DNA from: Elusimicrobia bacterium UBA5214
GTDB taxonomy: Bacteria; Elusimicrobiota; UBA5214
Reading direction: 5' to 3'
NCBI GenBank assembly: GCA_002412545.1
Contig: DHVG01000002.1
Coordinates: forward strand, 130,095 to 194,094
Length of the DNA: 64,000 nt
The notes under the pieces: model-generated
The model's database searches: none
What the model was told of the DNA's origin: nothing
Seen by the model: only the letters and a program-made list of their open reading frames with translations
Program-made: the position numbers and the translations under genes
Shown here: positions 29,792-50,066 of the stretch, one piece after another
Layout of the letters: each line of letters starts with the position of its first letter
How positions within the stretch are numbered: the stretch's first letter is position 1

Positions 29792-29841
29792 AGTTTTCCC
29801 CTAAAATCATTTTTTCTACTTCTTGTTTGCTTGACAATTTT

Positions 29842-30057: not shown

Positions 30058-30225
30058 AGTTTACCCCTCCCGAAATTATATTTTCAACTTTTTGTTTAGC
30101 TTCGGATAAAAGTTCTTTTGTTTTTATGCGTGCTTCGTGTGATTGGCGAAAACTGGCAACAGAGTCAACAAGTGTCCTTTTTCCCGAAAAACTTGCTTAT
30201 AAATAGATATATATAACAATCCCAT

Positions 30226-30564
30226 TTATGAGTATCTTTCTTCTTGTCCAGTATGCAATTCAGGAGAATAAAGCTCGTATGTTGATAAATGGTGTTCATA
30301 CCTCACTAATTTTTCTTTTTCCAGTTGATACAATATATAGTCAAGTTCGTCAGTCGGTATATCCGAGAATGCCTGGGCTATCTCCTCACGAGAAAACACT
30401 CTGGTTCCCGGTACTTTTTGTTGTTCTTTCCTCAGCCAATTGAGAACGCTTAGTTTTCTTTTTTCCTTTCTTCCTACAAACCATTTCCATAATAACTTGT
30501 AAAGTAGATTGATAATTTTTCCTTTCACTTTTCTATTTTTCCACTTTCGGATAAATGCCGTCAA
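30226..30564 (-). CDS. Small basic hypothetical protein (possible wHTH regulator) overlapping the R-M gene start
   Basis: Lys/Arg-rich N-terminus and C-terminal SREEIAQAFSDIPTDELDYILYQLEKEKLV. It overlaps the start of 30533-33658 by 32 nt. Confidence 0.3.
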   Translation of the reverse strand: MTAFIRKWKNRKVKGKIINLLYKLLWKWFVGRKEKRKLSVLNWLRKEQQKVPGTRVFSREEIAQAFSDIPTDELDYILYQLEKEKLVRYEHHLSTYELYSPELHTGQEERYS

Positions 30565-33500: not shown

Positions 33501-33658
33501 TCAGTTTTCTTTGGTAGAGTGGTAATATGGATATTTTTTTTGCCGACCGATTCTATATATTCCTGTAGTAATCCTTCAAGGATTGAGTAGTAACTCTCTT
33601 CCCTTGCGTCTCCATGTTGGGCAACTCCAAAGATTTTTTCTAAATATGCTTTCAACAT
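30533..33658 (-). CDS. MmeI-like Type IIL/IIG restriction-modification enzyme: N-terminal PD-(D/E)xK nuclease, N6-adenine MTase and a C-terminal TRD
   Basis: DFRVWDGSQHIVGYIEAKEP is a D-x13-EAK nuclease motif at the N-terminus. MTase motif I is VLDPAAGTLTFL and motif IV is IFGNPPYSG (NPPY). Total length is 1041 aa. Confidence 0.75.
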   Translation of the reverse strand: MLKAYLEKIFGVAQHGDAREESYYSILEGLLQEYIESVGKKNIHITTLPKKTEAGNPDFRVWDGSQHIVGYIEAKEPKNEDLDQTEETEQLKRYRHTFPNLILTNFFEFRRYHNGTLIDKVLIGRPFIVHKLKTVPPVEKEQDFVKLLEKFFSFSLPKVYDAKTLAIELANRTRFLRDEVVAQELKEEEEIGKGFILGFYEAFRKYLISGLTKEDFADLYSQTITYGLFAARTRSENEFNRKLAYDKIPPTIGILRDVFHFISLGKPSQQMEWIIDDISEVLAVTDVKNILHKYFHEGKGKDPIVHFYETFLAEYDPQTREKRGVYYTPEPVVSYIVRSLHRILKEHFNRKDGFASELVTVLDPAAGTLTFLAEASKLVVNEFVHKYGEGGKENLIREHILKNFYAFELMMAPYAVGHLKMSFLLEELGYELKDDDRFKLYLTNTLEMEELAQTELPGMVSLSEESHLAGKVKKETPILVIFGNPPYSGHSYNVGEWISKEIKVYYQVDGKPLGEKNPKWLQDDYVKFIRFAQWKIDQAGEGILGFITNHSYLDNPTFRGMRQSLMNSFNEIYILDLHGNITKEKGKCPDGSKDGNVFDIRQGVAIALFIKKKDEKRECEVHHSDLWGLQEKKYDWLLKNDIKTTKWQKISLKSEFFYRFIPTERKLFKLYYSYPKITDIFLANSVGIVTARDNLTIKWKPEEVWQTILNFSKLDPELARQAYSLGKDARDWKVELAQKDLEESGLDKKKIVPILYRPFDIRYTYYTGKSRGFHCMPRPEIMYHMLAGENLGLITIRRSRSVEDWRYAFVTDKVVAGATSITALDINYLFPLYLYQEKKDNPKKRSLGSVIMLFEPQADYGAKKPNLSPEIVEQLTKEFKKIPSPEQIFFYVYAILYSNIYRTRYAEFLKMDFPRIPLTKDYKLFSKMAEYGKRLVDLHLLKSAELDPPVAKFQGKGNYKIEKVKYEKGRVYINNEQYFEGIKPEIWKYQIGGYQVCDKWLKDKIGTTLNDIKPYCKIVTALQKTIEVQKLIDGIYPKVEK

Positions 33659-35729: not shown

Positions 35730-38700
35730 TTAAATTTTACTATTTTCAAGAAGATTTAGCAAGTATTTTGTTAAAAAAAATATTGTTCTTTCCTGGGGGA
35801 AATTATGCAGGTTTAAATGTAGGAATTTTTCTTGGAGGAAAAAAACTTTCCCGCGATAATTTTCGGTAAATCTTTTTATTTTCTCTCGGTCAATATTCGC
35901 TTCAGGAAAGAAACTTATTTCCAATCCGCCACGGAGGGATTTTTTACTTTTGATTTCTTTAATCATCAGTTTCTTTGCTAAAATGCGTAACTCGGCTAAA
36001 GAGAAAAGGTTTTCGGTTGGTTCGGGTATTTTACCGAAACGGTCAAGGAGTTCATCTTTCATCTCTTTTAATTCTTTCGTTGAAGACACCGAAAGAATGC
36101 GTTTATAAAAGATAATTCTTATTGAAGAAACCGGGATATAGTTTTCCGGTAAATGCGCTTCCAGAGGAAAATCAAATAGCGGTTCTTTTTCTTTCGATAC
36201 AGTTTCGCCTCTAAGTTTTTTGACTTCTTCTTCTAAGAGGCGGCAGTAAAGGTCATAACCGAGTTCACCAATGAAACCGTGCTGTTGCGGACCGAGGACA
36301 TTCCCAGCACCACGGATTTCTAAATCTCTTAAAGCAAGACGCATTCCCGAACCTAAAGAAGTAAATTCGGTTAACGCCTGCAGCCGTTTTAACGCACTTT
36401 CGGTAAGTTGCGTGTCACGATTATAAAAAAGGTAACAATATGCCTTCTGGTCGCCTCTACCGATGCGTCCGCGTAGTTGATAAAGTTGAGCTAAACCAAA
36501 TTCTTCCGCATTTTCTACAATTAAAGTATTAACCCGGGGCAAGTCCAAACCGGACTCAATGATACTTGTAGAAACAAGTACCGCATATTCACCGGTCAAA
36601 AATTTATGCATTGTTTTTTCCAGTTCCCGGGCGGACATTTGCCCATGGGCTAAACCAAATTTTATCTCCGGGAGAAAATTCTTCAGCCGGTTGATTACGG
36701 TTAGAATCGTCTCAATCCGGTTATGGACATAAAATACCTGTCCCCCACGGTTAAGTTCCGAAAGAACCGCCTTCTTAATTATTCCATCATTGTGAATAGA
36801 GATGCAGGTTTCAATTGGTAACCGTCCTTCCGGTGGTGTTTCAATTACCGAAACTTCACGGAGTCCACTTAAAGTCATAGATAATGTCCGGGGTATCGGT
36901 GTTGCGGAAAGAGTAAGTGTATCTACAGAAAAACGCAATTTTTTTAATTTTTCTTTTGCACCTACACCAAAACGATGTTCTTCGTCAATCACTACTAAAC
37001 CTAAATCCTTAAATCCAATATCTTTCTGCAAGAGACGATGTGTGCCGATAATGATATCAATTAACCCATTTTTTAAATCGGAAAGAATTTTTTCTTGTTC
37101 TCTTTTTGTCCGGAAACGGGAAAGCATTTCAATATTTACCGGGTATTCTTTGAACCGTTCAGTAAAAGTGCGGTAATGTTGTTCAGCAAGAATTGTTGTC
37201 GGGACGAGCAGGGCTACCTGTTTACCAGCAAGAGCAACTTTTAATCCTGCACGCATCGCTACTTCAGTTTTACCATAACCGACATCACCAATCACTACCC
37301 GGTCCATCGGTTTGGAAGAGATTAAATCAGTTTTCACTTCTTCAATTGCTTTTGCCTGGTCAGGTGTTTCTTCGTAAGGGAAACTGGCCGCAAATTCTTT
37401 TTCAATATAGGAGTCGGGAGGGAAAGAATAAGCGGGTAAAATTTGACGCTGGGCATAAACCTGGAGAAGTTCACGAGCAAAATTATAGAGTGATTCTTTT
37501 ATTTTTTGTTTAAGTCGTTCCCAGGAAATACCATCAAGGGAATAAATTCTTGGACGATGTCCTTGCGGACCGATATATTTCTGGACTAAACGGAAATCAG
37601 TAATTGGCACATAAAGTTTGTCACCGCCTTTATATTCAAGAGAAAGGAAGTCAGCATATTTATTCTCAATGAGGAGATGTCTTAATCCACGGTAGATACC
37701 GATACCATACTGCTCATGAACGATGTAGTCACTGGGTTGGATTTCACTCAGATGTTCAAGGATGCCTCCACTGCGGAATTTTGGTAAACGGTAATGAATT
37801 TTATAGCGGGCAAAAATATCGTTACCGGTAATAATAACTAATTTCATTTCGGGCAAAAGAAAACCATTTACTAAAGGACCAATAAAAATGGGTAAACTTA
37901 TTTCCGGTTTTTTTTCTTCTAAAAGGGCAGACAACCTTTCTTCTTCCTGTCGGTTTTGTGCATAAAGATAAATTTTATATTTTTCTTTAATCCAAGTTTC
38001 CAGTTCTTCTAAAAAAAGAGTAAATTTACCGTTAAAACTTGGTAAATCTTGTGCGCCAAAATTAAACGTTTCGTGAGCAGGCAAAAGAACATTTTCTACT
38101 TGCTTAAAATCGGAAAATTCATTTGACTTCACTGTTTCTTTTACATCAATATCCCAGAAAATTAAGGTATTTTTGGGAAAATACTCGGCAAACCCTGAAC
38201 CATTACGGTTCAGGGCAAGTGGAGTTTGTTTTTCTATGGAAGCAGGAATAATTTTTGCTTCTTGAATATTTTCTTTTGAACGCTGGGTAGTGACATCAAA
38301 AAGACGTATTTCTTCAATTTTATTTTCAAAAAAAATAATCCGCAAGGGTAAAACAAAATTTGCTGCCCAGAGGTCAACAATTTCGCCGCGGACACTATAT
38401 TCACCGCTTTGTTCAACGAAATCTATCCGTTCATATCCGGCAGAAGTTAAATAATTGACGAATTCATCACGACTGATTTCTTCTTCAAGTTTAATTTCCC
38501 GACAAAATTTGATGAATTTATCTTTTTTCGGGATAGTTTTTCCCAGAATTTGAGCAGAAGTAACCAGAATTGAGACCTTATTTTCTAAAATTTCATTCAG
38601 ACCGGCAATCTGTGCCTGATGGACTTTTTCGGGATATAAATATATCTTTTTAGTTAACTTAAAAAATATTTTTAATGCTTCCAAATCGTCAGTAAGTTCT

Positions 38701-38873
38701 TCACTTTCTTCCTCAGTTTTTGTTACGGCAACTATCGGACAATCAAGTCTTTCGGCTAAACCAAGCAGAAAAAATGCTTTACTCCCACCGGCAAGTCCGC
38801 TTACCTGCAGATGTCGCCGGGTAGTGATTTTTCTAATTAGAACCTCAAAAATAGGTAATTCCATTTTTATCAT
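35730..38873 (-). CDS. mfd: Transcription-repair coupling factor
   Basis: UvrB-homology N-domain, helicase motifs (GDVGYGKTEVA, DEEHRFGV, TLSATPIPRTL, QLRGRIGR) and a C-terminal TRCF domain. Length 1047 aa. Confidence 0.92.
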   Translation of the reverse strand: MIKMELPIFEVLIRKITTRRHLQVSGLAGGSKAFFLLGLAERLDCPIVAVTKTEEESEELTDDLEALKIFFKLTKKIYLYPEKVHQAQIAGLNEILENKVSILVTSAQILGKTIPKKDKFIKFCREIKLEEEISRDEFVNYLTSAGYERIDFVEQSGEYSVRGEIVDLWAANFVLPLRIIFFENKIEEIRLFDVTTQRSKENIQEAKIIPASIEKQTPLALNRNGSGFAEYFPKNTLIFWDIDVKETVKSNEFSDFKQVENVLLPAHETFNFGAQDLPSFNGKFTLFLEELETWIKEKYKIYLYAQNRQEEERLSALLEEKKPEISLPIFIGPLVNGFLLPEMKLVIITGNDIFARYKIHYRLPKFRSGGILEHLSEIQPSDYIVHEQYGIGIYRGLRHLLIENKYADFLSLEYKGGDKLYVPITDFRLVQKYIGPQGHRPRIYSLDGISWERLKQKIKESLYNFARELLQVYAQRQILPAYSFPPDSYIEKEFAASFPYEETPDQAKAIEEVKTDLISSKPMDRVVIGDVGYGKTEVAMRAGLKVALAGKQVALLVPTTILAEQHYRTFTERFKEYPVNIEMLSRFRTKREQEKILSDLKNGLIDIIIGTHRLLQKDIGFKDLGLVVIDEEHRFGVGAKEKLKKLRFSVDTLTLSATPIPRTLSMTLSGLREVSVIETPPEGRLPIETCISIHNDGIIKKAVLSELNRGGQVFYVHNRIETILTVINRLKNFLPEIKFGLAHGQMSARELEKTMHKFLTGEYAVLVSTSIIESGLDLPRVNTLIVENAEEFGLAQLYQLRGRIGRGDQKAYCYLFYNRDTQLTESALKRLQALTEFTSLGSGMRLALRDLEIRGAGNVLGPQQHGFIGELGYDLYCRLLEEEVKKLRGETVSKEKEPLFDFPLEAHLPENYIPVSSIRIIFYKRILSVSSTKELKEMKDELLDRFGKIPEPTENLFSLAELRILAKKLMIKEIKSKKSLRGGLEISFFPEANIDREKIKRFTENYRGKVFFLQEKFLHLNLHNFPQERTIFFLTKYLLNLLENSKI

Positions 38874-39036
38874 TGTTTCCTATAAAAACAAGTATAGTAA
38901 AACAATGACTATTTTAGCAAATTTTATTCTCCTTCGCCCCGATAGGTCATGGTCTACCGAGAATACCCCCCCGATGTAACATTGGGACAGAAATGAAGGC
39001 GAGGAGAAGGAGAATTCCGCTCTGATACCCCGCCCC

Positions 39037-39068
39037 TTAGGGCGGGGAGCTTCATTTTTTGGAGTTGT
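39037..39068 (+). terminator. Plus-oriented intrinsic-terminator-like hairpin in the mfd-pilB intergenic region
   Basis: ccccgccc-ctta-gggcgggg followed by agcttcatttttt. The flanking genes are on the minus strand. Confidence 0.4.
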
Positions 39069-39108
39069 TGTCTGATTTTTTAAAGGGGGAAACAAGAAGC
39101 AAGAAGGG

Positions 39109-40662
39109 TTAACTTTCAGTTACCCGGAGGATTTCTTCCGGCGTAGTGATACCTTGAACAACTTTTTCCCAGCCGTCTTCCCGAAGGGTCTTCATTCCTT
39201 TTTTTCTTGCAGTTTCTTTTAGTATTGTCGGGGTTGCTTTTTTTATAATCAGTTCGCGCAAATCGTTATCTATGAGTATCAGTTCAAATATACCGGTCCG
39301 ACCACGATATCCAGTTTGATGACATATTTTGCATCCTTTGCCTCGGTAAAAAACGATATCCTTATTCAATTGTTGCATTTCCAGGGTAGTAATTAATTCT
39401 TCTGAAAGTTTATATTGTTCCCTGCAGTTTGTGCAGATAGTCCGGACCAAACGCTGAGCAAGGACACCGATGAGTGCCGAAGAAATGAGAAATGGCTCAA
39501 CATGCATATCAATAAGCCGAGTAACCGCACCGATTGCATCATTAGTGTGGAGAGTAGTAAGAACCAGGTGACCGGTCAATGCTGCTCGCATAGCAATTTC
39601 TACGGTTTCTAAATCGCGCACTTCTCCAACCATAATCACATCCGGGTCCTGACGCAGGACTGCCCGTAACCCGTCAGCAAAAGTGAAACCAGCTTCCGGA
39701 TTCATTTCCGCTTGATTAATACCTCTTAGGAAATACTCACGCGGGTCTTCTAAAGTAATAATGTTTTTTCCTGGTGAGTTAATTTTCTGCAAGGCAGCAT
39801 ACAAGGTGCTTGTCTTTCCGCTTCCGGTCGGACCGGTAACAAGAATAATACCGTAGGGTTTTTTAATCAGCATTTTAAATTTTTCTAAGGTGTCGGTTGG
39901 GAATCCCAGTTTTTCTAAGTTAACATTTGTCTCCTTTTGGTCAAGAATACGGAGGACTACTTTTTCGCCAAAAGCCACCGGAAAAGTGGAAACTCGCACA
40001 TCAACTTCACGGTCTTCTATGCGCACACGGAAACGTCCATCCTGCGGACGACGGCGTTCAACGATATCCAAACCAGCGACGATTTTTATCCGGGGGATAA
40101 TCGGCAACTGCAATTGTTGAGGGAAAGAAATAGACTCATGTAAGATACCGTCAATACGGAACCGTATTTTTACTGTATTTTCTTCCGGTTCAATATGAAT
40201 ATCGCTTGCTTTTTCTTTGATTGCTTGGGAAAGGAGCAGGTTTACAAATTTGATTACTGGCGGTTCCTCGCTTATCCGCTGTAACCTAAGAAGGTCAAGG
40301 TGTTCTTCTTTAGCGAATGTAATGCCCATTTTCCCGATATTCTTGATAATTTCGTCCATTGAATCGCTTACTCCATAAAACTGTTCAATTGTCTTAAAGA
40401 TATCGGTTTCATTACTTGTCACTGGCTGGATATTACATCCGGTTATCAGTCGTGCTTCATCAATAGCAATGATATTCATCGGGTCAGACATCGCTACGGT
40501 TAATGTATCTTTAATTTTGAAGAGAGGCACCATTTTATATTTCTTTGCCAATTTTTCCGGCATAATATTTACCACCTCGGGGTCAATAAGATAACTGTTT
40601 AATTCAATAAAAGGAATATTACTGGTAATTTTATCCGGGTTAGCCATTTTGGGTTTCACCAA
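39109..40662 (-). CDS. pilB: Type IV pilus assembly / type II secretion ATPase (PilB/GspE family)
   Basis: GSPII_E N-terminal domain, Walker A GPTGSGKT, Asp/His boxes and a C-terminal tetracysteine motif (CTNC...CKIC). Confidence 0.85.
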   Translation of the reverse strand: MVKPKMANPDKITSNIPFIELNSYLIDPEVVNIMPEKLAKKYKMVPLFKIKDTLTVAMSDPMNIIAIDEARLITGCNIQPVTSNETDIFKTIEQFYGVSDSMDEIIKNIGKMGITFAKEEHLDLLRLQRISEEPPVIKFVNLLLSQAIKEKASDIHIEPEENTVKIRFRIDGILHESISFPQQLQLPIIPRIKIVAGLDIVERRRPQDGRFRVRIEDREVDVRVSTFPVAFGEKVVLRILDQKETNVNLEKLGFPTDTLEKFKMLIKKPYGIILVTGPTGSGKTSTLYAALQKINSPGKNIITLEDPREYFLRGINQAEMNPEAGFTFADGLRAVLRQDPDVIMVGEVRDLETVEIAMRAALTGHLVLTTLHTNDAIGAVTRLIDMHVEPFLISSALIGVLAQRLVRTICTNCREQYKLSEELITTLEMQQLNKDIVFYRGKGCKICHQTGYRGRTGIFELILIDNDLRELIIKKATPTILKETARKKGMKTLREDGWEKVVQGITTPEEILRVTES

Positions 40663-41020
40663 GTAATTCTTTTACTTTTTGTAACAATTCGTTAGGTCTA
40701 AACGGTTTAGTCAGATAATAATTTGCACCAGCTTTTTCACCCCACATTTTATCCTCTTCTTGACTTTTTGCGGTGAGCATAATGATTGGGGTATGCCGGT
40801 AATTTTCATCAAATTTAAGTAATCGGCAGACCTGATACCCGTCTAATCCCGGGAGCATTAAATCTAAGATGATTAAATCGGGCAATTCAGTTTTTGCTTT
40901 TTTGTAGCCCTCGTTTCCATCGGTTGCGGTAAGGACATTGTAGCCGTTAGCTTCCAGTCGCATTTTTATGGTTTCTAAGATATCCGGTTCATCATCAACA
41001 ACTAAAATTTTTTTCGGCAT
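40640..41020 (-). CDS. Single-domain response regulator (CheY-like receiver)
   Basis: KILVVDDEPDILE...DLIILDLMLPGLDG...TAK...KPF. Confidence 0.85.
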   Translation of the reverse strand: MPKKILVVDDEPDILETIKMRLEANGYNVLTATDGNEGYKKAKTELPDLIILDLMLPGLDGYQVCRLLKFDENYRHTPIIMLTAKSQEEDKMWGEKAGANYYLTKPFRPNELLQKVKELLGETQNG

Positions 41021-41023
41021 TTT

Positions 41024-42655
41024 TTATTCCCGAGGGAGAAGAAAACTAAATTTGCTACCTTTCCCGAGTTCACTCTCTGCCCAGATTCTACCGTGATGTT
41101 TTTCAATAATTCCTTTACAAATAGCCAAGCCCAATCCCGTCCCTTTTATTTTTGTTTTGGCGGAAGAACGTACTTGATAAAATTTATCAAATATTTTTTC
41201 CAAGTCCTGGGACGGTATACCTATTCCGTTATCAACAATCTCAACTTGCACACCTTCTTCAGATATTCTTGCAATAACCTTGATTGTTCCATTTTCCGGG
41301 GTGAATTTTATTGCATTACCAATAAGATTAGTAATTACCTGATTAATTCTATCCGAGTCAATATTTATCTCGGGTAAGTTCGCATCGGCATCAATGAATA
41401 AGGAGATATTTTTTTTACTTGCCGATTCATTCAAAAAGAGGACAATATCTTTGATTAACTGGTTAAGATTAGTTTTTTCTTTTTTCAATTCCAATCTATT
41501 TGCTTCAATTCGTGAAATATCCAGAAGGTCATCAATGAGTCGGCCTAAACGGTCAATATTACGATTGATGATGAGTAATGAACTCTTCTGGTATTCGCTT
41601 ACTTCACCGGCAATACCATCAAGTAAGTTGTCCATTGCTCCTCTGATTGCGGTTAAAGGTGTGCGTAACTCGTGTGAGACCATAGAAACGAAATCCGACT
41701 TCATCTGGTCAATTTTTCGTTCTTCAGTAACATCACGCAAAATTAGCAGTGTGCCAATCTTTTTATCTTCTCTATCTTTTACGGTAGTCATTTCAAACCG
41801 GACAATTCTTGGATACGGTTGGAACAAATCTATTTCCTTAATTGTAGGTTTATCCATTTCTTCTTTAAGCGTTTCCCAGGAAGTTGAAATATTCAATTCT
41901 CTAAATCGCTGGTTCACTTTCGTTATATCTAATTTTTCATTCTTGTTGAAGCCAAGCATTTCTCTTGCGGTTGGATTGTGAATAATCAATTCATCCTTTT
42001 CGTCAGTCATAATTACTCCTTCGGACATATTTTCTACCATTATTCTCATCTTGCTTTTTTCTGCCGAAATTACTGCCTGTAATCGTTCAATCGCACCCGA
42101 TGCCTGGCTAGCAATAGTGTAAAGAAGTTTTATTGTCTCTTCCGGATATTCTATTTCCCTAATACTACCAATATTTAAAATACCGACGATTTCATCCCGC
42201 ACAAAGAGAGGTACATCAAATGAAGATTTAACTTTTTGTTCTTTTACAATCAAATTTCCTGCTACTTTAGTTTTCAATTCCCAATCTTTTTGTTCTAAAT
42301 TGATATTCCGGAGAGCAAGAGTGTTAAACTTTATGATTAGATTATTTCTAATTTCTTCTAAGAAGGATTGTTCCGGATTAAAGGTAGTTCGGATTGATAT
42401 TTGCGGTTTCTCATCCTTACCAGCAATAAGTAAAGAAGCACAGAAATCGTAATTCACGACCCGATGGAGGGAATCCACCAAAAGATGAATAAGTTCATCG
42501 TAGTCAAGAGTATAACTTATGGCATTACTCAGTTCGTAGAGGATGGATAACTCAAAAATTCTTTGTTTTAATTCTTCTTTCAGGTGTCTATTTTCGGCAA
42601 TAATTTCTTCTTGGTTGGTAATCGGAATTATATCCGAAGAAGTATTTAACATCAC
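41024..42655 (-). CDS. Sensor histidine kinase (GAF/PAS sensor, HisKA, HATPase)
   Basis: H-box SHELRTPL; N/G boxes NLIGNAIKFT, DNGIGI and GTGLGLAI. Confidence 0.85.
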   Translation of the reverse strand: MMLNTSSDIIPITNQEEIIAENRHLKEELKQRIFELSILYELSNAISYTLDYDELIHLLVDSLHRVVNYDFCASLLIAGKDEKPQISIRTTFNPEQSFLEEIRNNLIIKFNTLALRNINLEQKDWELKTKVAGNLIVKEQKVKSSFDVPLFVRDEIVGILNIGSIREIEYPEETIKLLYTIASQASGAIERLQAVISAEKSKMRIMVENMSEGVIMTDEKDELIIHNPTAREMLGFNKNEKLDITKVNQRFRELNISTSWETLKEEMDKPTIKEIDLFQPYPRIVRFEMTTVKDREDKKIGTLLILRDVTEERKIDQMKSDFVSMVSHELRTPLTAIRGAMDNLLDGIAGEVSEYQKSSLLIINRNIDRLGRLIDDLLDISRIEANRLELKKEKTNLNQLIKDIVLFLNESASKKNISLFIDADANLPEINIDSDRINQVITNLIGNAIKFTPENGTIKVIARISEEGVQVEIVDNGIGIPSQDLEKIFDKFYQVRSSAKTKIKGTGLGLAICKGIIEKHHGRIWAESELGKGSKFSFLLPRE

Positions 42656-42656
42656 C

Positions 42657-43415
42657 TTATTCTATTTTTTGTTCTACACTTTTAAGGAAACCGAATATTT
42701 TTTCAATGTCCAAAGGTTTAGAAAGACAACCCCGAATACCGGATAATTGTTTTGCCTCCTCTAATTTTTCCGGATAACTGGTCATAAAGATAACTTGCGG
42801 TTTATTAGATACCTCTCTAAATTTTTGATATAATTTTATACCGCTGGTATCTTTGAGAACGATATCCAGAAAGATAAGGTCAAATTCCTTTTCTTTAATT
42901 AACTTTTCCGCCTGCTCACTGTTGTTTGCTACTTCAAAGGAGTAATTTTTTCTCCCTAAAAAATTGGAAAAGAAATCAAGCATATTCTCATCGTCATCAA
43001 CAACCAGGATGCGTGGTTTGGTCGTAAATTTACTCAACTGGATATCGCTGAGTATTGTATTAACTTGGGTGATATCAAAAGGCTTGTAGATTGAATCACG
43101 CACTCCTTCCTTTTTCGCTTGTTCCAGTGTTTCTTCTACGGCATAACCGGTCATCATTACTACCGGTATTTCGGGATTGATTTTCCGTATTTGCCGGTAT
43201 GTTTCTAAACCATCCATCCCCGGCATTTTTACATCCAAAAAACAAATATCAAAACTTTTTTCTTTCACTAATTCTACCCCACGGTAACCGTTTTCTGCCT
43301 CGGTTACTTCAACCCCTTGTGCCGATAAAAGACGACCAAAAAAAACACGGATAATTTTTTCATCGTCAATAACTAAAACTTTAAGTCCCGTTTTTGCCGT
43401 AGTCATGAAATTCAA
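42657..43415 (-). CDS. Tandem double-receiver response regulator (REC-REC)
   Basis: Two consecutive receiver domains: KVLVIDDEK...D..FLDVKMPGMDG and RILVVDDDENM...DLIFLDIVL. Confidence 0.8.
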   Translation of the reverse strand: MNFMTTAKTGLKVLVIDDEKIIRVFFGRLLSAQGVEVTEAENGYRGVELVKEKSFDICFLDVKMPGMDGLETYRQIRKINPEIPVVMMTGYAVEETLEQAKKEGVRDSIYKPFDITQVNTILSDIQLSKFTTKPRILVVDDDENMLDFFSNFLGRKNYSFEVANNSEQAEKLIKEKEFDLIFLDIVLKDTSGIKLYQKFREVSNKPQVIFMTSYPEKLEEAKQLSGIRGCLSKPLDIEKIFGFLKSVEQKIE

Positions 43416-43430
43416 CCCCCGTTTAAATAT

Positions 43431-43823
43431 TTATTTGCTTGTAGTGGAAGACTTTGCTTTGGCAATTTCTTCAATAACTTCAGCCAGTTCTTTAATCTCA
43501 AATGGTTTAAGAAAAAACCGATATGGATTTAACTTTTTTGCTTCTTCTTCTAATGTCTGTTTTGCACTGCTGGACATAATTACCACCGGTAATTCGGGCT
43601 TAATTTGTTTAATAATTTTTAAAGTTTCTACCCCGTCCATCTTGGGCATAACCGTATCCAGAAAGACAAGGTCATAAGTTTCTTGCTTTACTTTTTCAAT
43701 ACCATTCAATCCATTTTCTGCAATTTCGTATTTATACCCGTACTTCTGAATTAAACGGGATAATACCGCCTGGATTAATTCATCATCATCAATGATTAAG
43801 AGTAATAATGTTTTGCTATCCAT
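43431..43823 (-). CDS. Single-domain response regulator
   Basis: LLLIIDDDELIQ...DLVFLDTVMPKMDG. Confidence 0.85.
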   Translation of the reverse strand: MDSKTLLLLIIDDDELIQAVLSRLIQKYGYKYEIAENGLNGIEKVKQETYDLVFLDTVMPKMDGVETLKIIKQIKPELPVVIMSSSAKQTLEEEAKKLNPYRFFLKPFEIKELAEVIEEIAKAKSSTTSK

Positions 43824-43842
43824 TAATTTAATTGCAAAGTAA

Positions 43843-45453
43843 TCATCCTTTCAAAATTGGTAAAGTAATTACAAATTTTGCACCTTTATCTTTACCTTCA
43901 CTTTCTACTCTAATGTTTCCTTGGTGTTTCTGAATGATTCCGTGGCTTACCGAAAGTCCTAATCCAGTTCCCTTGCCTACTTCTTTGGTAGTAAAAAACG
44001 GTTCAAAGATGTGTTTCAAATTCTCTTTTTCAATTCCTATACCGGTGTCAATAAAAGAAATTTCTATTGAATCCGGTTCTCTGAAGTATGTATTTATGGT
44101 TAAGGTGCCACCTTTAGGCATCGCTTGTTGTGCATTTACAATGATGTTCAAAAATACCTGTTGTAAATGACTTGTACTTGCATTTATAAAAGGTGAATTC
44201 TGAGCGTAATTCCTGACTATTTTTACATTAGCAAGTGTAATTTGATGTTCACATAACTTCAATGTTTCTTCAATTACTTCATTAACATTAGCCGGTTTAA
44301 AATCAAATTGGGATTGCCTGGAGAAACTTAACAAACTGGCAATAATCTTTTTACAGCGCTGAGCAGATTTCTCAATTTCTTTGAGGTCATTTTTCCAAGG
44401 AATATCGTTGGGTATTTCGTTAATAAGTATTTGGGCAAAACCCAGTATCCCGCTTAAAGGATTATTCAATTCATGAGCCGCTCCTCCGGCTAACTGCCCA
44501 AGAGCGGCTAATTTCTCCGATTGGATAAGTTTTGCTTGTGATATTTCAAGATTACGGCATACCTCTTTTAATTCGGTGATTTTCTCCTCTAATTTTTTAT
44601 AAAGATGTGCGTTTTCTATTGCCTGACTGATTTGAGCGACAAAAACCGAAACCATCTGAAGGTCAGTTTGACTAAAATTTTCTTTAGTTTGGGTCCTCGT
44701 CAGGTTGATTAACCCGAGGAGATTGTCCCCTCGTATTATTGGAAAAAGAATTGCCGAATTTGTTCCATTGTAATCTACAAATTTGTTAAATTCCGGATAG
44801 TTGCCGAATCCTTCAACTAAAAGTAAAGGTGCTCTTGTCTGTTTGGTCTTCTCAGCAATAATCTGACCGAGGGTTAACCTTTTTTCTTTCTCAATTTCTC
44901 CATCAAATCCAGAAGAAGCAGCAAGATAAAGTTTTTCTTGTTCGTCATAAAGCATAATTGATACCTCGTCAGCACGGAAAGTCCTAATACTTAAATCAAC
45001 GATTATATTCAGCAGGTCGTCTAACTTTAGCGAAGAGAATACTGCCCTACTTGTTTCGTAAAGGGCAAGGGTAAATTTTAATTCTTTCTTTTCTAAAACT
45101 TTTTCAATGAGAGTAGTTAATTCATCAATATTGAACGGTTTGGCGATGTAATCATAAGCACCCATTTTCATACATTCTACTGCCGTTTCTACCGTGCCGT
45201 AACCGGTAGCAACAATTGCTTCTATTGTCGGGTCAATTTTTTTTATTTCTTTCAAGGTTTCCGTGCCACTTAATTTTGGCATTTTTAAGTCAAGAATAAC
45301 CAAGTCAAACTTTCCTTGTTTAACTTTTTCTATTCCCTCAAGACCGTCAGCAGTGGTAACGATACTATACCCTCGTGAACCCAATTCAAAAGTAAGTAAA
45401 TCCCGCAACCCCCTTTCATCATCAATGACTAAAATTTTTTGTTTACTTCCCAT
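43843..45453 (-). CDS. Hybrid REC-GAF-HisKA-HATPase histidine kinase
   Basis: N-terminal receiver (ILVIDDERGLRDLL...DLVILDLKMPKLSG), a GAF-like middle, H-box AAHELNNPL and HATPase G-boxes. Confidence 0.8.
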   Translation of the reverse strand: MGSKQKILVIDDERGLRDLLTFELGSRGYSIVTTADGLEGIEKVKQGKFDLVILDLKMPKLSGTETLKEIKKIDPTIEAIVATGYGTVETAVECMKMGAYDYIAKPFNIDELTTLIEKVLEKKELKFTLALYETSRAVFSSLKLDDLLNIIVDLSIRTFRADEVSIMLYDEQEKLYLAASSGFDGEIEKEKRLTLGQIIAEKTKQTRAPLLLVEGFGNYPEFNKFVDYNGTNSAILFPIIRGDNLLGLINLTRTQTKENFSQTDLQMVSVFVAQISQAIENAHLYKKLEEKITELKEVCRNLEISQAKLIQSEKLAALGQLAGGAAHELNNPLSGILGFAQILINEIPNDIPWKNDLKEIEKSAQRCKKIIASLLSFSRQSQFDFKPANVNEVIEETLKLCEHQITLANVKIVRNYAQNSPFINASTSHLQQVFLNIIVNAQQAMPKGGTLTINTYFREPDSIEISFIDTGIGIEKENLKHIFEPFFTTKEVGKGTGLGLSVSHGIIQKHQGNIRVESEGKDKGAKFVITLPILKG

Positions 45454-45833
45454 TAGTCCTTACCTCTTTGATAGACAGTAGATTTTTCGATTATAGTGAA
45501 TATCTCATTTATGTCAACCGGTTTATAAAGGCAGGTATAAGCACCGAGTTCTTTTGCCTTGTTTTCAAAAGTAAAGGCAGGGTCTGAACTGCTGCTGAAG
45601 ATCACTACAACCTGGGTCGGTCGTAATTGTTTGATAATTTTCAGTGCTTCCGGTCCTCGCATTCTCGGCATATGCACATCTAAAAAAATAATATCAAAAG
45701 TATCTTTTTTTACCATTTCTATACCTTCTAACCCATCGTTAGCGGTAAATACTTCAAAACCGTTTGGTTCTAAGAGAAATTTAAACAAATCCCGTATTCC
45801 TTGTTCGTCATCAACAACTAATATTTTTTTCAT
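45453..45833 (-). CDS. Single-domain response regulator
   Basis: KILVVDDEQGIRDLF...DIIFLDVHMPRMRG. Confidence 0.85.
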   Translation of the reverse strand: MKKILVVDDEQGIRDLFKFLLEPNGFEVFTANDGLEGIEMVKKDTFDIIFLDVHMPRMRGPEALKIIKQLRPTQVVVIFSSSSDPAFTFENKAKELGAYTCLYKPVDINEIFTIIEKSTVYQRGKD

Positions 45834-45932
45834 TTCCGATTTCCGATTTTAGATTTACGATGTCAATCGTCAATCAACAATCATCAATCACTAAATCGGT
45901 AGTTTTCTCGTAAAAGTTGTTCCTTTCTTTGA

Positions 45933-47507
45933 CTACTCCGCTAAGAGTTTACTGATTCTCTTGCCTAATTCTTCAATCTCAAACGGCTTGGAAAGATAAT
46001 CGTTGGCGCCAGCAGTGAATATCTTTTCCCGATTTTCCGGTGAATCATAACCGGTAATGGCTAAAATTTTTATTCCTTTAGTTTTTTCGTTACTGCGGAT
46101 ATTCCGGCAGACTTGAAAACCGTCAATTCCCGGAAGCAATAGGTCAAGAATCATTAGGTCTGGGTTAAACTCAAGAACTGCCTGCCCAGCACGGAAGCCA
46201 TCAGTAGCCGAGGTAAACTGGTATTTTTCCGGGAATTTTTTCAAAAAAGCAATTGCCAGGTTAATAATTGCCCGGTCATCATCCACAACGAGTACTTTTT
46301 TCTTTTCCTTTTCAGTGAATTCTTCAATAATAGGGAGTTTAATGGTGAAAGTTGTTCCTTTACCTTTTTCACTCTCAAAATCAATTGTTCCATTATGTTT
46401 CTGCATTATTTCATAACATAAACTTAGACCTAAACCAGTTCCTTTACCCGGTTCTTTGGTTGTGAAAAATGGTTCAAAAATTTTATGTTTGACTTCTTCC
46501 GGGATACCTGCCCCGGTATCTTCTACACGAATTTCCACGAATTTCCCCTCACCTTCCACCTTTGCTAAAGCTACGGTGGACAGGTTTTCCTCTCCCTCAA
46601 GGGGAGAGGGGATGGTGAGGGTGGTGGTTATGGTTATTGTTCCACCATCGGGCATTACATCAAGAGCATTGTTCGCCAAATTCATAATTACCTGTTGGAT
46701 TTGGTTACGGTTGGCAAAAATCATTGGTAAATCAGGGGCATATTTTTTGGTTATTACAACATTGCGCATTTTTGCTTGATGTTCAACCAGTAACAAGGTT
46801 TCTTCAACTGCTTGGTTTATTTCCATTGATGTTTTCCCGGTTCCGCTTGAACGCGAGAAAACCAAAAGATTTTGCACTAAGGTCTTACAGCGCAGCGCTT
46901 CTCTTTCAATTGAGGACAAAGGCAGATAAAGAGGATTATTCTGGTCAATTCGTTTCATTACACTCTGGGCAAAACCTAAGATTACACCCATCGGATTATT
47001 TATTTCGTGAGCGATACCACCAGCTAATTGACCGATTGCCGCCATCTTGTCCGATTGAATAAGTTTAGCTTGCGTTTCTTTCAACTGTTTATTTGCTTCC
47101 TCAACATCTTCTAAGATATTGAGTATTGCTTTTCGGTCGTTGCTTAATTCAGCGATTTCTTTTTCTCTTTCTTCAATCATTGTCCAGATTAGTTTTGCCG
47201 AGGCACCTTTTAAAAGTTCTACACCGGGAGGTAACATTTTACTTAACGATTTTTCAACTTCGGGGTTACCGGTTACCTCAATAACTGTATTGAGACCACT
47301 AATTTTTAAGAAGGGGGAGAAATCTTTCCCGGTCGGTAGTCCCAATTCTTTTGCTAATTTGATTCCCGGTGCGTCATCATTAGTGTCCACAATGCCGCAA
47401 ATATTTAACCACGGTTCTTTATGAAATAACTCAATTAATGCCTTTCCACCTTTCCCGGCGCCGATAATTAAAACATTTATTTTTTTGTCCATTTGCATTA
47501 TTCTCAC
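45933..47507 (-). CDS. Soluble hybrid histidine kinase: Rex-like NAD(H)/CoA-binding Rossmann domain, HisKA, HATPase, REC
   Basis: N-terminal [19 protein letters not shown]...ICGIVDTN...[11 protein letters not shown] is a Rex C-domain-like GxGxxG fold. H-box [10 protein letters not shown]-terminal receiver. The HATPase loop carries a GC-rich palindromic insertion (46546-46628). Confidence 0.7.
46546..46628. repeat. GC-rich compound palindromic element inserted in frame in the HATPase loop of a histidine kinase
   Basis: cccctcaccttccacc ... cctctccctcaaggggagagg ... ggggatggtgagggtggtgg. The core is the exact reverse complement of 54944-54964. Confidence 0.85.
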
Positions 47508-47508
47508 C

Positions 47509-48534
47509 TCAGCTTCCTATTCTTGCTTTAAGTTGAGCAATTTCATTTTTCAGTTCAACCATTTTCAGTTCCCGTCCAACGACCGTCTTTTTCCAGCGCT
47601 GTAATTCATCAAATTCTTTTTTCAATTCATCTCTTGATGCTTCTAATTCCTTTGTCCGTTCTTTGACTCTTTGTTCTAAGAAAAGATTAGCCGCTTTTAA
47701 TTCTTCGGTAGTTATCTGCAGTTTTTCTGCCATTGAATTGAAAGAATTAGCAAGTTTACCGATTTCGTCTTTTGATTTTATTTTGGCTCTTACTGCGAGA
47801 TTACCCCCGGCGATTATTTCGGTAACCACGGCTAACTGGTCAAGAGGACGAGTTATTCCTGAAGAGAGAAGGAAAGAAATAACCGCACTAATAACTATAA
47901 ATAAGAAAATAAAACCTATACTGGAAATAAAAATCTTGTTTCTTTCTATTCCAATCCCTTTAAGGGAGAAACCAATTTTTACTAATCCAAGAGCATTTAT
48001 TTTGCCTTCTCCTTGCTCCGATTCTAATGCTTTTTCTACGACCGTCCCCGCAGAAGGGATAATTAAACTACAGACCTCAAGGAATTTACCTTCTTTTTTA
48101 CTCCGCTGATGATAATGAATACTTGGTTTTGCTGTAGAAATGGTCTCTCGGTCAAGTTCATCTTGATATACTTTCCCAATTTCTTGAGGGTTACTATGGG
48201 CTAAGACATTACCGGTGTTGTCCATAATTGATATATAAGCCACATTAGGGTCAAGAGCAAAAGATTGGACTAAAGAATTGAGTCGGTCCGCATTTCCCAG
48301 ATATAAATCTACCGCACTTGATGAACTTAATATCTCAATTAAATGCATTCCATGCTCGTGCATATTTTTTATTAAAACATTTCTTATTTGAAGAAGAAAA
48401 AAAATGCTTAAAGTAAGTCCAATCATTCCGGTTAGAAATGATGAAAAAAGGAATAATTTTGTCTTTAGACTGTTTAGAAGATGATAACCCTTTTTTTCTG
48501 AAGATTGCTGACTAATTTGTTCTTCTTTATTCAT
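47509..48534 (-). CDS. Membrane sensor module without a kinase domain: TM, extracytoplasmic domain, TM, HAMP, coiled coil
   Basis: Two hydrophobic segments flank a ~150 aa domain. The HAMP-like segment is RPLDQLAVVTEIIAGGNLAVRAKIKSKDEIGKLANSFNSMAEKL. The C-terminal coiled coil has no H-box or HATPase. Confidence 0.6.
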   Translation of the reverse strand: MNKEEQISQQSSEKKGYHLLNSLKTKLFLFSSFLTGMIGLTLSIFFLLQIRNVLIKNMHEHGMHLIEILSSSSAVDLYLGNADRLNSLVQSFALDPNVAYISIMDNTGNVLAHSNPQEIGKVYQDELDRETISTAKPSIHYHQRSKKEGKFLEVCSLIIPSAGTVVEKALESEQGEGKINALGLVKIGFSLKGIGIERNKIFISSIGFIFLFIVISAVISFLLSSGITRPLDQLAVVTEIIAGGNLAVRAKIKSKDEIGKLANSFNSMAEKLQITTEELKAANLFLEQRVKERTKELEASRDELKKEFDELQRWKKTVVGRELKMVELKNEIAQLKARIGS

Positions 48535-48537
48535 CTT

Positions 48538-49110
48538 TTATTCCTCCAGTAATTTGGCGATTCTCTCGCTTAATTCTTCGGTACCAAACGGTTTAGGAAG
48601 ATAATCGTCAGCACCGGCAGCAAATATCTTTTCCCGATTTTCCGGCGAATCATAGCCGGTGATTGCTAAAATTTTCATTTCTTTTGTCTTTTCATTACTG
48701 CGGATATTCCGACAGACCTGGAAACCATCAATTCCGGGAAGCATTAAATCAAGAATGATTAAATCCGGTTCAAATTCAGAAAGTTTTTGCCCGGCTTGGA
48801 AACCATCCATAGCCGAAGCAAACTGATATTTTTCCGGTAATTTTTTCAAAAAACGAGTGATAAGATTAATAATCGCTTGGTCGTCATCAACAACTAAAAT
48901 TTTTTTTCTACCATCCTCAAGTAATTCTTTGGGAATAGGCATAGCGTATTTTTTCAAGAATTCAAGTAAGTCATCTTTTCTTACCCGGCGATGTCCTCCG
49001 GGTGTGTAGAAAGCTTTGAGTTCACCGGCATCAATCCAATCAGCTACGGTGGTAGGAGAAGCACCACAAATTTCACTGATATCAAAAGTGCTGTATGTTT
49101 TTTCCGCCAT
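48538..49110 (-). CDS. MerR/excisionase-type HTH fused to a receiver domain (DNA-binding response regulator)
   Basis: N-terminal FDISEICGASPTTVADWIDAGELKAF..GGHRRVRKDDL HTH. The receiver is ~80% identical to the C-terminal receiver of 45933-47507. Confidence 0.75.
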   Translation of the reverse strand: MAEKTYSTFDISEICGASPTTVADWIDAGELKAFYTPGGHRRVRKDDLLEFLKKYAMPIPKELLEDGRKKILVVDDDQAIINLITRFLKKLPEKYQFASAMDGFQAGQKLSEFEPDLIILDLMLPGIDGFQVCRNIRSNEKTKEMKILAITGYDSPENREKIFAAGADDYLPKPFGTEELSERIAKLLEE

Positions 49111-49229
49111 TTATTTACCGCTTTTGCTGTTTTTACCGCTTAATCAGATTATACCGCTTTTACTGTTTTTGTCAAGGGTTTTTTGGAAAGATTTTTTTGC
49201 TGCAGAGGAACCCTAAAGTGTGGGTAAGT

Positions 49230-50066
49230 TTAGATGGTTAACCGGGTAGGTTTTTTCTGGTTAAGTTTTATTTTTCCGTTAGCAAGATTTTTTATGGTAG
49301 AAATGATTAAAGGGAACTCTCTTTTTAAACCTTCAGCACGGATTTTTTTGAAAAGTGGCTCATTTTCACCTTCCTCTTCAATAATCCGCTCTAAAGTTTT
49401 AGGAGTAAACATCTTCACAATTTCTTTCCCCTTCCTTTTATCCTTCCCCACTTGTGGGGGAGGGAGAGGATGGGGGGGTGTTTTCAGTTTCGCCTCCAAC
49501 TGTCTCCGCAAACGGTCAAATTCTTTACCCACAATTGGATAGGTGCAATAACTGATTGGAGGACCAGCGTCAAGTTCGGGAGTGACTAAATGCATCATTA
49601 CCCCCGATTCTTTTTCTTTATTTCTAATCAGTTGCCAGATTACTTCCTGCCAGGTGCCTTTCGGTCCACCCGGTTTTGCTGGGTGTAAGTTTATCATTTT
49701 ATACCTTCGGCAAATTTCAGCATTGACAATTAACATATATCCAGCAAGAACAATCAGGTCAACTGGATATTTTTCAATGAGTTTGATTACTTGATGATGA
49801 TATTCGGTACGCCATTTTCCCAGGTTTTCTTTCCGTAAATCCGGTTTAAATTTTAATGCAGAAAAAGTTACCAAAGGAAATTCGTATTTCTTTACTAAAG
49901 CAAAAAATTTATCGCTTTCCGGATTTTCACCTTCTTCACGGTTAGAAAAAACGAAACTAATTTCCGTATTTAGTATTTCGTTTTTTGTAATTTGTTTAAC
50001 CACCGTATTTAATAAATCCCTTGCTGCTTTATCTCTTCCGGTTGAAAACCAACCAATTTTATACAT
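49230..50066 (-). CDS. purN: Phosphoribosylglycinamide formyltransferase-like (PurN family) with a C-terminal extension
   Basis: The formyl-transferase N-domain has IGWFSTGRDKAARDLL and VDLIVLAGYMLIV. The gene ends the pur/pyr operon and contains a GC-rich in-frame palindrome (49441-49490). Confidence 0.6.
   Translation of the reverse strand: MYKIGWFSTGRDKAARDLLNTVVKQITKNEILNTEISFVFSNREEGENPESDKFFALVKKYEFPLVTFSALKFKPDLRKENLGKWRTEYHHQVIKLIEKYPVDLIVLAGYMLIVNAEICRRYKMINLHPAKPGGPKGTWQEVIWQLIRNKEKESGVMMHLVTPELDAGPPISYCTYPIVGKEFDRLRRQLEAKLKTPPHPLPPPQVGKDKRKGKEIVKMFTPKTLERIIEEEGENEPLFKKIRAEGLKREFPLIISTIKNLANGKIKLNQKKPTRLTI

Follow-up and report, generated by a model that had tools for sequence, protein, structure and literature searches.

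Several described systems share parts with the locus presented here. In MCP-CheA signalling, a transmembrane (TM) sensor with a HAMP domain and a long cytoplasmic helix has no enzymatic output, and a soluble kinase is encoded alongside. Rex uses a Rossmann-type dinucleotide-binding domain as a sensor and not as an enzyme, and BkdR is the sigma-54 (SigL)-dependent activator of the ptb-bcd-buk-bkd operon. The RedCDEF system of Myxococcus xanthus, referred to as 'four-component', comprises two kinases, one of them only kinase-like, a dual receiver and a single receiver, which are encoded together and lack output domains and Hpt; its signal flows by receiver competition and not through a linear relay (PMC2755868). 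Output-less receivers are also associated with PilB-family ATPases, as PixG, PixE and LsiR in Synechocystis and PilG and PilH in Pseudomonas aeruginosa, and direct binding of a receiver to PilB1 has been described in Synechocystis (10.1101/2021.06.11.447907; PMC11181946). Here we analyze a signalling cluster on the minus strand of a 64-kb stretch of DNA from Elusimicrobia bacterium UBA5214 (contig DHVG01000002.1; the whole stretch is called the window, and positions refer to it), with emphasis on two uncurated parts: the N-terminal domain (N-domain) of a soluble histidine kinase, which is shared with BkdR, and a membrane sensor without a kinase, whose helix ends in a conserved tip motif. Our reading, put forward tentatively and rather doubtful as a whole, is that the N-domain, a truncated DmpF/Rex-like domain, serves as an N-terminal cofactor sensor (for NAD(H) or a CoA-type ligand) in at least 1,663 protein clusters, and that the tip-motif helix is an output acting in trans, which would let several sensors plug into one soluble kinase.

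The cluster spans 39109-49110 and was described in the earlier note, made from the letters of the window, as nine signalling genes followed by a PilB gene. This layout was borne out, since all ten open reading frames (ORFs) are present at their coordinates, the Pfam architectures agree (HAMP, HisKA and REC included) and the core-domain E-values across the ten proteins are all 1e-10 or better (Table 1). The gene at 41024-42655 does encode a kinase, although not the plain one that had been assumed, as Pfam shows a GAF-PAS-HisKA-HATPase architecture. In total there are eight intact receiver domains, three intact histidine kinases, one kinase-less Cache-HAMP protein and one motor ATPase of the PilB/GspE family. 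The cluster is real and mostly ordinary, and the two parts mentioned above are treated first.

The first of them is found in the hybrid kinase encoded directly downstream of the membrane sensor, hereafter the Rossmann kinase, which shows no TM segment and for which the Pfam scan gave no winged-helix or other DNA-binding domain. Its residues 1 to about 110 have no Pfam match above the gathering cut-off, with DapB_N, GFO_IDH_MocA and CoA_binding all sub-threshold (12.9 bits vs a cut-off of 22.3 for CoA_binding), and the NCBIfam scan gave no match either. An AlphaFold2 (AF2) model built from five homologues, with a predicted local distance difference test (pLDDT) score of 87.7, displays a beta-alpha-beta Rossmann core of about five strands, which begins around residue 5 and ends after about 95 residues, and a long helix, 96-127 and beyond, that joins this core to the HisKA domain. 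When the model was compared with the PDB using Foldseek, the top match was DmpF (1nvm_B, an acylating acetaldehyde dehydrogenase; E 3.2e-6; about 100 aligned residues with 23% identity), DmpF-type enzymes coming first, Gfo/Idh/MocA enzymes next and the Rex family at rank 14 (E 1.5e-4). Profile searches against the PDB agree, with DmpF best at 1.2e-6 and Rex at 5.4e-5, the alignments spanning DmpF residues 1-101 only. Both the GxGxxG motif, present as GAGKGG, and the acidic D36 that closes beta2 are intact. According to the model, the kinase N-terminus is a genuine, truncated dinucleotide-binding Rossmann domain.

The N-terminus had previously been described as a Rex-C-like NAD(H)-binding Rossmann domain. 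Its fold and its NAD-binding residues (GxGxxG and the beta2 Asp) stand, but Rex is a cousin and not the nearest relative, the DmpF-type enzymes being closer in both sequence and fold. Both Rex and the N-domain have the GxGxxG, and in both of them beta2 ends with a G-I-x-D-x-N motif. They differ in that Rex carries a winged-helix DNA-binding domain, whereas here a histidine kinase output follows via a continuous helix. In the DmpF/BphJ family (PDB 1nvm_B, 4jn6_B, 8ih7_B), the NAD+/CoA-binding N-domain is the best profile and fold match, with the common pattern GxGxxG ... D/G-I-D ... (S/A)(D/P)G(L/I)xxA ... G(V/I)xT ... (T/S)(G/A). Here only the first five or so strands of that cofactor domain are kept and are fused to signalling outputs, the catalytic cysteine and the C-terminal dimerisation domain of DmpF being absent.

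An exhaustive hidden Markov model search shows how far this domain is spread, with 1,663 cluster representatives at E <= 1e-3, a lower bound for the family, and 1,097 at E <= 1e-10; neither Pfam nor NCBIfam has a model of its own for it. It is almost always N-terminal: in 137 of the 149 best representatives it begins no later than residue 15, and 10 representatives inspected for their non-N-terminal domain proved to be Hpt-, LuxR-HTH- or tandem-domain variants. Among 85 longer members scanned there are 52 histidine kinases, 50 proteins with PAS, 16 with GGDEF, 15 with REC, 4 with sigma-54 AAA+ and 1 of HD-GYP type, and only 5 match any Pfam NAD-domain model; a chemoreceptor (MCP) fusion was also found. 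Conservation over 142 representatives with at most 50% mutual identity is concentrated at G11 (100%), G13 (98%), G16 (93%), D36 (92%), A41 (96%), G43 (92%), A47 (99%), T74/G75 (95%) and W103 (87%), a set that, judged by its pattern, is a dinucleotide-binding fingerprint plus a Trp at the start of the output helix. Carriers include Desulfovibrionales, Omnitrophota, Methylomirabilota, Nitrospirota, Acidobacteriota, Syntrophomonas and many Bacillaceae. Concerning the Omnitrophota, one 1117-aa Rossmann-PAS protein (locus L049) ends in a Cys-rich module, …LVPICANCKKMRVEG…HGLCPECIHKLY, a further case of a Rossmann domain feeding a non-enzymatic C-terminal output.

The members from Bacillaceae are proteins of about 690 aa with the architecture domain-PAS-PAS-AAA+-HTH (e.g. 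L024:5983-8058, with others among loci L022-L087). In Anoxybacillus, the 691-aa member lies directly upstream of the genes for phosphate butyryltransferase (ptb), an amino-acid dehydrogenase (bcd) and butyrate kinase (buk), and because these neighbours are those of the bkd operon the protein is BkdR; no other regulator found here with the N-domain in its family has been characterised genetically. BkdR thus shares its N-terminal domain family with the kinase and differs in its output, which is transcriptional activation and not phosphorylation. To our knowledge, its signal has never been defined. It has been studied genetically in Bacillus subtilis and B. thuringiensis, and its domain description names only PAS/PAC and AAA+, not the N-domain (PMC4428206). 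Our search of the literature on Rossmann-type sensors in kinases or on output-less HAMP proteins yielded nothing relevant.

The second part is the membrane protein encoded just upstream of the Rossmann kinase, hereafter the HAMP protein, which is 100% identical to the GenBank protein DHV62_03355 of the metagenome-assembled genome. It has two TM segments (about aa 27-55 and 199-229), and its Pfam scan gave sCache and HAMP only, with no kinase and no MCPsignal domain. Five orthologues (62-66% identity) are all 340-343 aa long and equally devoid of a kinase, as are remoter homologues of 290-375 aa (25-31% identity). That the protein carries no kinase had been stated before and is agreed on by Pfam and all orthologues; the accompanying remark that the sensor/kinase split is unusual does not hold, as the kinase-less architecture is conserved across the family and is not the product of a broken gene. 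The AF2 model (pLDDT 79) displays a Cache-like periplasmic domain, HAMP and an unbroken 84-residue helix, 257-340 (pLDDT 82-91), which ends in the motif.

In an alignment of 25 members it is the extreme C-terminus, and not the HAMP domain, that is most conserved. R321 is invariant, E322, L323, K324, M325, E327 and L328 reach at least 90%, and the near-invariant consensus of the tip reads VGRELKMxELKxEI, the variant position being I or V (VGRELKM[IV]ELKxEI). In the looser form G[RK]E..[MIL]..LK..[IV], the motif was located in 30 proteins, always at a distance of 6-19 residues from the C-terminus. The same tip is found on other output-less sensors, namely dCache-HAMP, MASE3, flavodoxin-like and Rossmann+PAS proteins and a 157-aa Rossmann-only protein. 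Neither Pfam nor NCBIfam has a name for the motif; the family of tip-motif sensors is named nowhere and is defined here by one or more sensor domains, a long helix after them, the motif within 20 residues of the C-terminus and no enzymatic output, a definition that the HAMP protein fits. It is a member of a conserved class of trans-acting membrane sensors, and we infer that its tip docks onto the kinase. A database-wide search with the 46-aa tail, a query short for the word index, returned one fragment.

Two loci encode pairs of tip-ended sensors in one operon (VGRELKM/GREEKM in both), one with flavodoxin-like and HAMP sensors (L127:2691-4004 and 5001-6011), the other with dCache-HAMP and MASE3 sensors (L128:5001-6308 and 6335-7618). 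Several tip-motif sensors of one operon may share one partner. Nine loci with a tip-motif HAMP protein were inspected; a kinase, mostly soluble and of PAS type, lies in the same-strand cluster in six, and in five a gene for a periplasmic solute-binding protein lies immediately upstream. As a side observation, type IV pilus-related genes occur within 5-10 kb of tip-motif HAMP proteins at three loci, a small sample (L006:14703-17025, L126:195-1499 and L127:1-1070); they are either pilMNO or encode a PilT/PilB-like T2SSE ATPase that shares 47% identity with the window ATPase.

The relation of this family to ordinary sensor kinases is apparent from profile comparison. From TM1 to the end of the LEQRVxERTKEL linker, conventional HAMP-kinases match the family profile with 100% probability; beyond it the two diverge, the alignment ending where the kinases enter the phospho-acceptor helix. 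One fused Cache-HAMP-HisKA-HATPase relative (locus L090) is 41% identical to the HAMP protein over TM2, HAMP and linker (E 2e-20) and 60% identical to the Rossmann kinase in the kinase core. We also considered whether the tip could be a degenerate kinase H-box (SVSHDLR vs TVGRELK, with His changed to Arg); the profile aligns only up to the linker and motif-only against DHp-only profiles reach a probability of 8.9%, so this idea is not supported.

Compared with MCP-CheA signalling, the tip-motif family is often accompanied by periplasmic binding proteins as well, but it differs in having no MCPsignal hairpin, no CheW, no CheA P1-P5 architecture and no methylation genes, and its helix is a single 84-residue stalk with a distinct end motif.

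The conservation of the cluster can be judged from one syntenic relative (locus L004), located on an independent metagenome contig of 173 kb with CODH/ACS flanks. The first seven genes keep the same order there at 64-83% protein identity (HTH-REC 83%, HAMP protein 64%, REC1 72%, REC-GAF-kinase 81%, REC2 74%, REC-REC 70%; for the Rossmann kinase, 75% in the core and 60% in the N-domain), and given the different flanks this seven-gene synteny identifies the cluster as a conserved unit and not a chance arrangement. The metagenome scan for further syntenic relatives gave one full orthologue only, on the same contig as L004; the contig of the window was itself found in three metagenomes. No orthologue of the GAF-PAS-kinase or of the ATPase is present at the L004 locus, where the best match to REC3, the terminal receiver, is only 38% identical. 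A short relic of the C-terminal part of a PhoR-type kinase (L004:12961-13083), 51% identical to aa 501-541 of the GAF-PAS-kinase, lies in the 475-nt gap between Rossmann kinase and REC1 and hints at a past rearrangement, loss and gain of the last genes being equally compatible with it. The Rossmann-kinase orthologue of L004 (11055-12938, 627 aa) also has an insert of about 105 residues between Rossmann domain and kinase; it is Cys-rich (…RCWEVKNCQNTQCPAYKSENLRCWLIQQTQCGDKS…ECKKCTVFK), matches no family named in Pfam or NCBIfam and could represent a module that senses metal or redox state. As to whether sensor and kinase are fused in relatives, the split is kept in L004, and L090 is the one fused case.

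The catalytic elements are preserved throughout the cluster. All eight receivers show the acidic pair, the phospho-acceptor Asp, the Thr/Ser and the Lys, and all three kinases the H-box histidine and the N, G1 and G2 boxes. The receiver at the C-terminus of the Rossmann kinase (aa 405-518) is 77-78% identical to that of the HTH-REC protein, while every other receiver pair in the cluster has 24-43% identity. The corresponding twins of L004 are 73% identical and orthologous receivers 81-82%; because the pattern recurs there, the twins are old and maintained, and not the result of recent gene conversion. By their sequence likeness, the twin receivers point to one kinase serving both. HTH_17-REC homologues (40% identical) lie directly upstream of HDOD-kinases in distant high-GC genomes, and the upstream position of the HTH-REC gene agrees with a cognate pairing of regulator and kinase. 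The Rossmann kinase and the REC-GAF-kinase have in common an NtrB/AtoS-like H-box (LAGGxAHExNNP); REC1, REC2 and REC-REC resemble NtrC/AtoC-type receivers and REC3 is PhoB-like, so that H-box and receiver subtypes differ between the modules proposed below. No Hpt domain was detected among the ten proteins at E <= 0.01 (Pfam), and therefore a His-Asp-His-Asp phosphorelay is not encoded here. At the level of gene content alone, the surroundings of the REC-GAF-kinase match RedCDEF; here the second kinase has a GAF domain and, at its N-terminus, a receiver, and extra single receivers are encoded.

Start codons and spacings deserve mention, as they modify two junctions that the earlier note had pointed out. 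For the Rossmann kinase the likeliest start is ATG 47498, preceded at seven to ten bases by a GAGGTG Shine-Dalgarno (independent gene callers pick M4 or M6), so that the junction given as 47507/47509 is probably the HAMP stop codon, 10 nt and then the kinase start. Likewise, ATG 40647 is the probable start of the ATPase, whose gene would then overlap REC3 by 8 nt (ATGGCTAA); the 23-nt overlap put forward before is obtained only with the longest, TTG-initiated ORF. The HTH-REC and HAMP genes are 3 nt apart, and the other spacings range from -1 to 24 nt, with the exceptions of 99 nt before REC1 and 235 nt after the ATPase gene. The cluster is flanked by housekeeping genes, namely mfd on the downstream side and a formyltransferase-like gene on the upstream side.

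Regarding transcription, perfect TTGACA-N16-18-TATAAT promoters occur three times in the window against 0.07 expected, two of them on the coding strand of the cluster: P1, ahead of the HTH-REC gene, and one inside REC1. The hexamers and spacing of P1 are conserved in L004 (9360-9387), with a similar repeat arrangement, and so is the TGATTGATGATTGTTGATTGAC flanking the promoter-like site at 45846-45873. The 19-nt repeats that overlap P1 are a candidate operator for the HTH-REC regulator; a third AAGCGGTA copy lies between them, with 18-nt phasing. Across the window this octamer is found at 10 sites vs 1.34 expected, including 9057-9073 (+) and 49116-49159 (-), with three copies in the P1 leader and two 9 nt apart inside a chaperonin gene. 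Terminator-like sites number 10 against 9.7 expected from shuffles; the cluster is thus not interrupted by internal terminators above chance, but internal promoter motifs are present.

The ATPase belongs to the PilB/GspE superfamily (T2SSE 6.6e-139; MshEN/T2SSE_N 1.2e-19). It narrowly misses the cut-off of the GspE model (TIGR02533; 623.2 bits vs 630.25), lies further below that of the PilB model (TIGR02538; 597.8 vs 675.65) and has a GspE-like length of 512 aa. Control of it by cyclic di-GMP (c-di-GMP) was considered and rejected: the tandem 24-residue MshEN motifs are absent, a scan of the whole window with a regular expression for the c-di-GMP motif (RLGxx[LVI][LVI]xxG) came back empty, the T2SSE_N fold has only about 15 residues in front of it, and no riboswitch or other Rfam family was found in 38500-49600. 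The scan of window ORFs, which covered about 25,000-59,000 and ten large ORFs within 3,769-24,710, gave no pilin, pilC or pilMNOPQ gene; a PilT-like T2SSE ATPase (373 aa) is encoded at 17198-18319 (+), about 20 kb from the cluster and on the opposite strand. The third perfect sigma-70 promoter (18408-18436, +) follows this gene, and after it comes a multihaem cytochrome gene (19324-20580, +). The Rossmann kinase is tied to the cluster's ATPase by proximity alone. The best supported local statement is that REC3, whose gene is coupled to that of the ATPase, may regulate the ATPase directly. As compared with the Synechocystis regulators, which have a PATAN domain, REC3 has none, and in the pairing that we propose it would be fed by a PhoR-type and not a CheA-type kinase, the receiver-ATPase contact being a prediction.

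We regard it as an even call that the locus consists of three co-located two-component modules and not of one linear phosphorelay. Modules A and B (HTH-REC to REC-REC) are conserved together, and module C is variable. Module A, transcribed from P1, would comprise the HTH-REC regulator, the Cache-HAMP sensor and the Rossmann kinase with its receiver. The soluble kinase may read a cytoplasmic nucleotide-type cofactor through its N-domain, most likely NAD(H), with CoA or acyl-CoA as the alternative, and an uninterrupted helix would link this domain to the phospho-acceptor helix bundle. The Cache-HAMP protein, with no enzymatic output of its own, presumably senses something extracellular, and its tip (VGRELKMxELK) would dock in trans onto the kinase and pass the signal on. 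The kinase is then predicted to phosphorylate the twin receivers, i.e. its own C-terminal REC as a competing sink and HTH-REC, and HTH-REC, in turn, to bind at its own promoter, on the 19-nt repeats that overlap it. In module B (REC1, REC-GAF-kinase, REC2 and REC-REC), a receiver-gated kinase would act with connector or phosphate-sink receivers, resembling the 'four-component' logic of RedCDEF. In module C, the PhoR-type GAF-PAS-kinase would phosphorylate the output-less REC3, which most likely acts directly on the coupled PilB/GspE-type ATPase.

Each of the two parts highlighted here has its own competing explanation. The N-domain might sense no ligand at all, being a remnant of an enzyme or a module for constitutive dimerisation or scaffolding, with the kinase controlled through its partners only. 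Its truncation after about five strands and the fact that all Pfam NAD-domain matches stay below their gathering cut-offs are in line with this, but a near-invariant GxGxxG and beta2 Asp over 142 representatives are hard to explain without nucleotide binding, and the domain occupies the N-terminal input position ahead of kinase, GGDEF, sigma-54 AAA+ and MCP outputs, so we consider it unlikely. Far less credible is that the HAMP protein and the Rossmann kinase are halves of a recently broken Cache-HAMP-kinase gene, with the HAMP protein a decaying remnant without function. The fused relative L090 and the 10-nt distance between the two genes would be expected in that case; the split, however, is retained in L004 at 64% and 75% identity, the five orthologues are uniform in length, the tail is the best conserved segment of 25 members from unrelated contexts, and the kinase has its own start codon, its own Shine-Dalgarno and a complete N-domain that is independently widespread. 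Such a breakage is therefore very improbable. For the cofactor-sensor and tip-docking reading itself, several points count against it. Three of the nine tip-motif loci have no kinase within 5 kb, no HAMP+Rossmann fusion was found among the 10 representatives with a non-N-terminal domain, and the sensor-to-kinase contact in module A is proposed from sequence context. DmpF-type enzymes, the nearest solved relatives, bind both NAD+ and CoA in the matching domain, at one site, so that NAD(H) is no more than the likeliest ligand and redox sensing would be one of at least two options. BkdR responds physiologically to isoleucine/valine, which fits an acyl-CoA or an NADH signal equally. Concerning the modules, the promoter inside REC1 has no perfect counterpart in L004, only 1-4 nt separate modules B and C, so that co-transcription and cross-talk are possible, and in P. 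aeruginosa no direct interaction of PilG/PilH with PilB has been reported (PMC11656802).

The earlier note had proposed a single integrated phosphorelay, in which the HAMP signal and the NADH/NAD+ ratio pass through all nine proteins to PilB and pilus assembly. The genes do all share a strand, separated by short gaps or overlapping, terminator-like sites are at chance level, all receivers and kinases look functional, and Rex is a detectable homologue of the sensor domain. But no Hpt domain exists among the ten proteins, despite the hybrid kinase with its REC, which leaves the multi-step relay without its transfer domain; two perfect promoters and a third promoter-like site in the only sizeable gap lie in the cluster; L004 keeps seven genes without the last kinase or the ATPase, and with a mere 38% match to REC3; and the scanned ORFs hold no pilin, pilC or pilMNOPQ gene, with just the PilT-like gene some 20 kb off. 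On this evidence such a relay is improbable; given the two perfect sigma-70 promoters, one integrated pilus-control circuit is unproven, and the L004 arrangement leaves redox control of type IV pilus assembly with little support. A related possibility is that the ATPase serves a type II secretion-like system as its GspE, or is an orphan paralogue, in which case module C would regulate secretion or another fibre. The higher GspE score, the length of 512 aa and the lack of adjacent pilus genes favour it, but both models stay below their cut-offs, PilB and GspE are difficult to tell apart in deep-branching phyla and the PilT-like ATPase of the window suggests a retractile pilus system; it is a serious contender all the same, if short of an even chance. 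We keep the three-module arrangement, with its PilB/GspE-type ATPase, as our working model.

Table 1. Features of the signalling cluster and its flanking regions (positions in the window).
Feature	Position	Strand	Description
HTH-REC response regulator	48538-49110	-	N-terminal helix-turn-helix HTH_17 (excisionase/MerR-like), 2.5e-11; C-terminal REC, 1.2e-28
Kinase-less membrane sensor (HAMP protein)	47509-48534	-	TM1, sCache_3_2, TM2, HAMP, helix of ~85 residues to C-terminus
C-terminal tip motif VGRELKMVELKNEIA of HAMP protein	47536-47580	-	Best conserved part of sensor family
Soluble hybrid histidine kinase (Rossmann kinase)	45933-47498 (longest ORF to 47507)	-	Rossmann-like domain, long helix, HisKA, HATPase_c, REC
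Rossmann-like domain, putative sensor, ~110 aa	47163-47498	-	N-terminal, truncated, leads straight into signalling helix
REC1 single-domain receiver	45453-45833	-	Pfam 9e-26, pocket intact
REC-GAF-HisKA-HATPase kinase (receiver-gated)	43843-45453	-	Pfam, catalytic boxes
REC2 single-domain receiver	43431-43823	-	Pfam, pocket intact
REC-REC dual receiver	42657-43415	-	Pfam 6e-53, two stretches; both pockets intact
GAF-PAS-HisKA-HATPase kinase	41024-42655	-	PhoR/WalK-type H-box (SHELRTPL)
REC3 single-domain receiver, PhoB/OmpR-like, no output domain	40640-41020	-	Coupled translationally to ATPase gene
PilB/GspE-family ATPase, MshEN (T2SSE_N) + T2SSE	39109-40647 (longest ORF to 40662)	-	T2SSE 6.6e-139
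P1, perfect sigma-70 promoter TTGACA-N16-TATAAT	49148-49175	-	38 nt upstream of HTH-REC start codon
Internal perfect sigma-70 promoter	45490-45517	-	Within 3' end of REC1, 37 nt upstream of REC-GAF-kinase start
Promoter-like site TTGACG-N16-TAAAAT, 10/12	45846-45873	-	In 99-nt gap before REC1
Two 19-nt direct repeats (AAAAACAG[T/C]AAAAGCGGTA), 36 nt apart	49116-49170	-	Overlap P1
GC-rich 8-bp hairpin	39028-39047		235-nt gap between ATPase gene and mfd; no U-run on minus strand

Two further groups of genes lie elsewhere in the window. The stretch 28509-33658 (-), between pdxA and an aldehyde dehydrogenase-like gene, is possibly a small defence or mobile island: it holds the genes of a 1041-aa restriction-modification enzyme of Type ISP and of a protein with an ORF6N domain, besides two small ORFs without a Pfam match. 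At 3769-8064 (+), a 1431-aa fusion combines two BcrAD/BadFG ATPase domains with DUF2229 (CoA-enzyme activase type).

Two-component clusters are common, and the value of this one lies in its two uncurated parts, the N-domain shared with BkdR and the tip-motif sensors, both of which are variants within a well known kind of system and are testable in cultivable organisms. The intact fingerprint of the N-domain provides a testable hypothesis about the signal to which hundreds of kinases, cyclases and enhancer-binding proteins respond, and it can be addressed in cultivable Bacillaceae that carry the domain, not only in uncultured Elusimicrobia. The tip motif, if confirmed, would represent a general way to attach interchangeable sensors to one kinase and, if true, a principle of receptor-to-kinase coupling distinct from MCP-CheW-CheA; the annotation of 'orphan' HAMP proteins and of sensor-less soluble kinases would then change.

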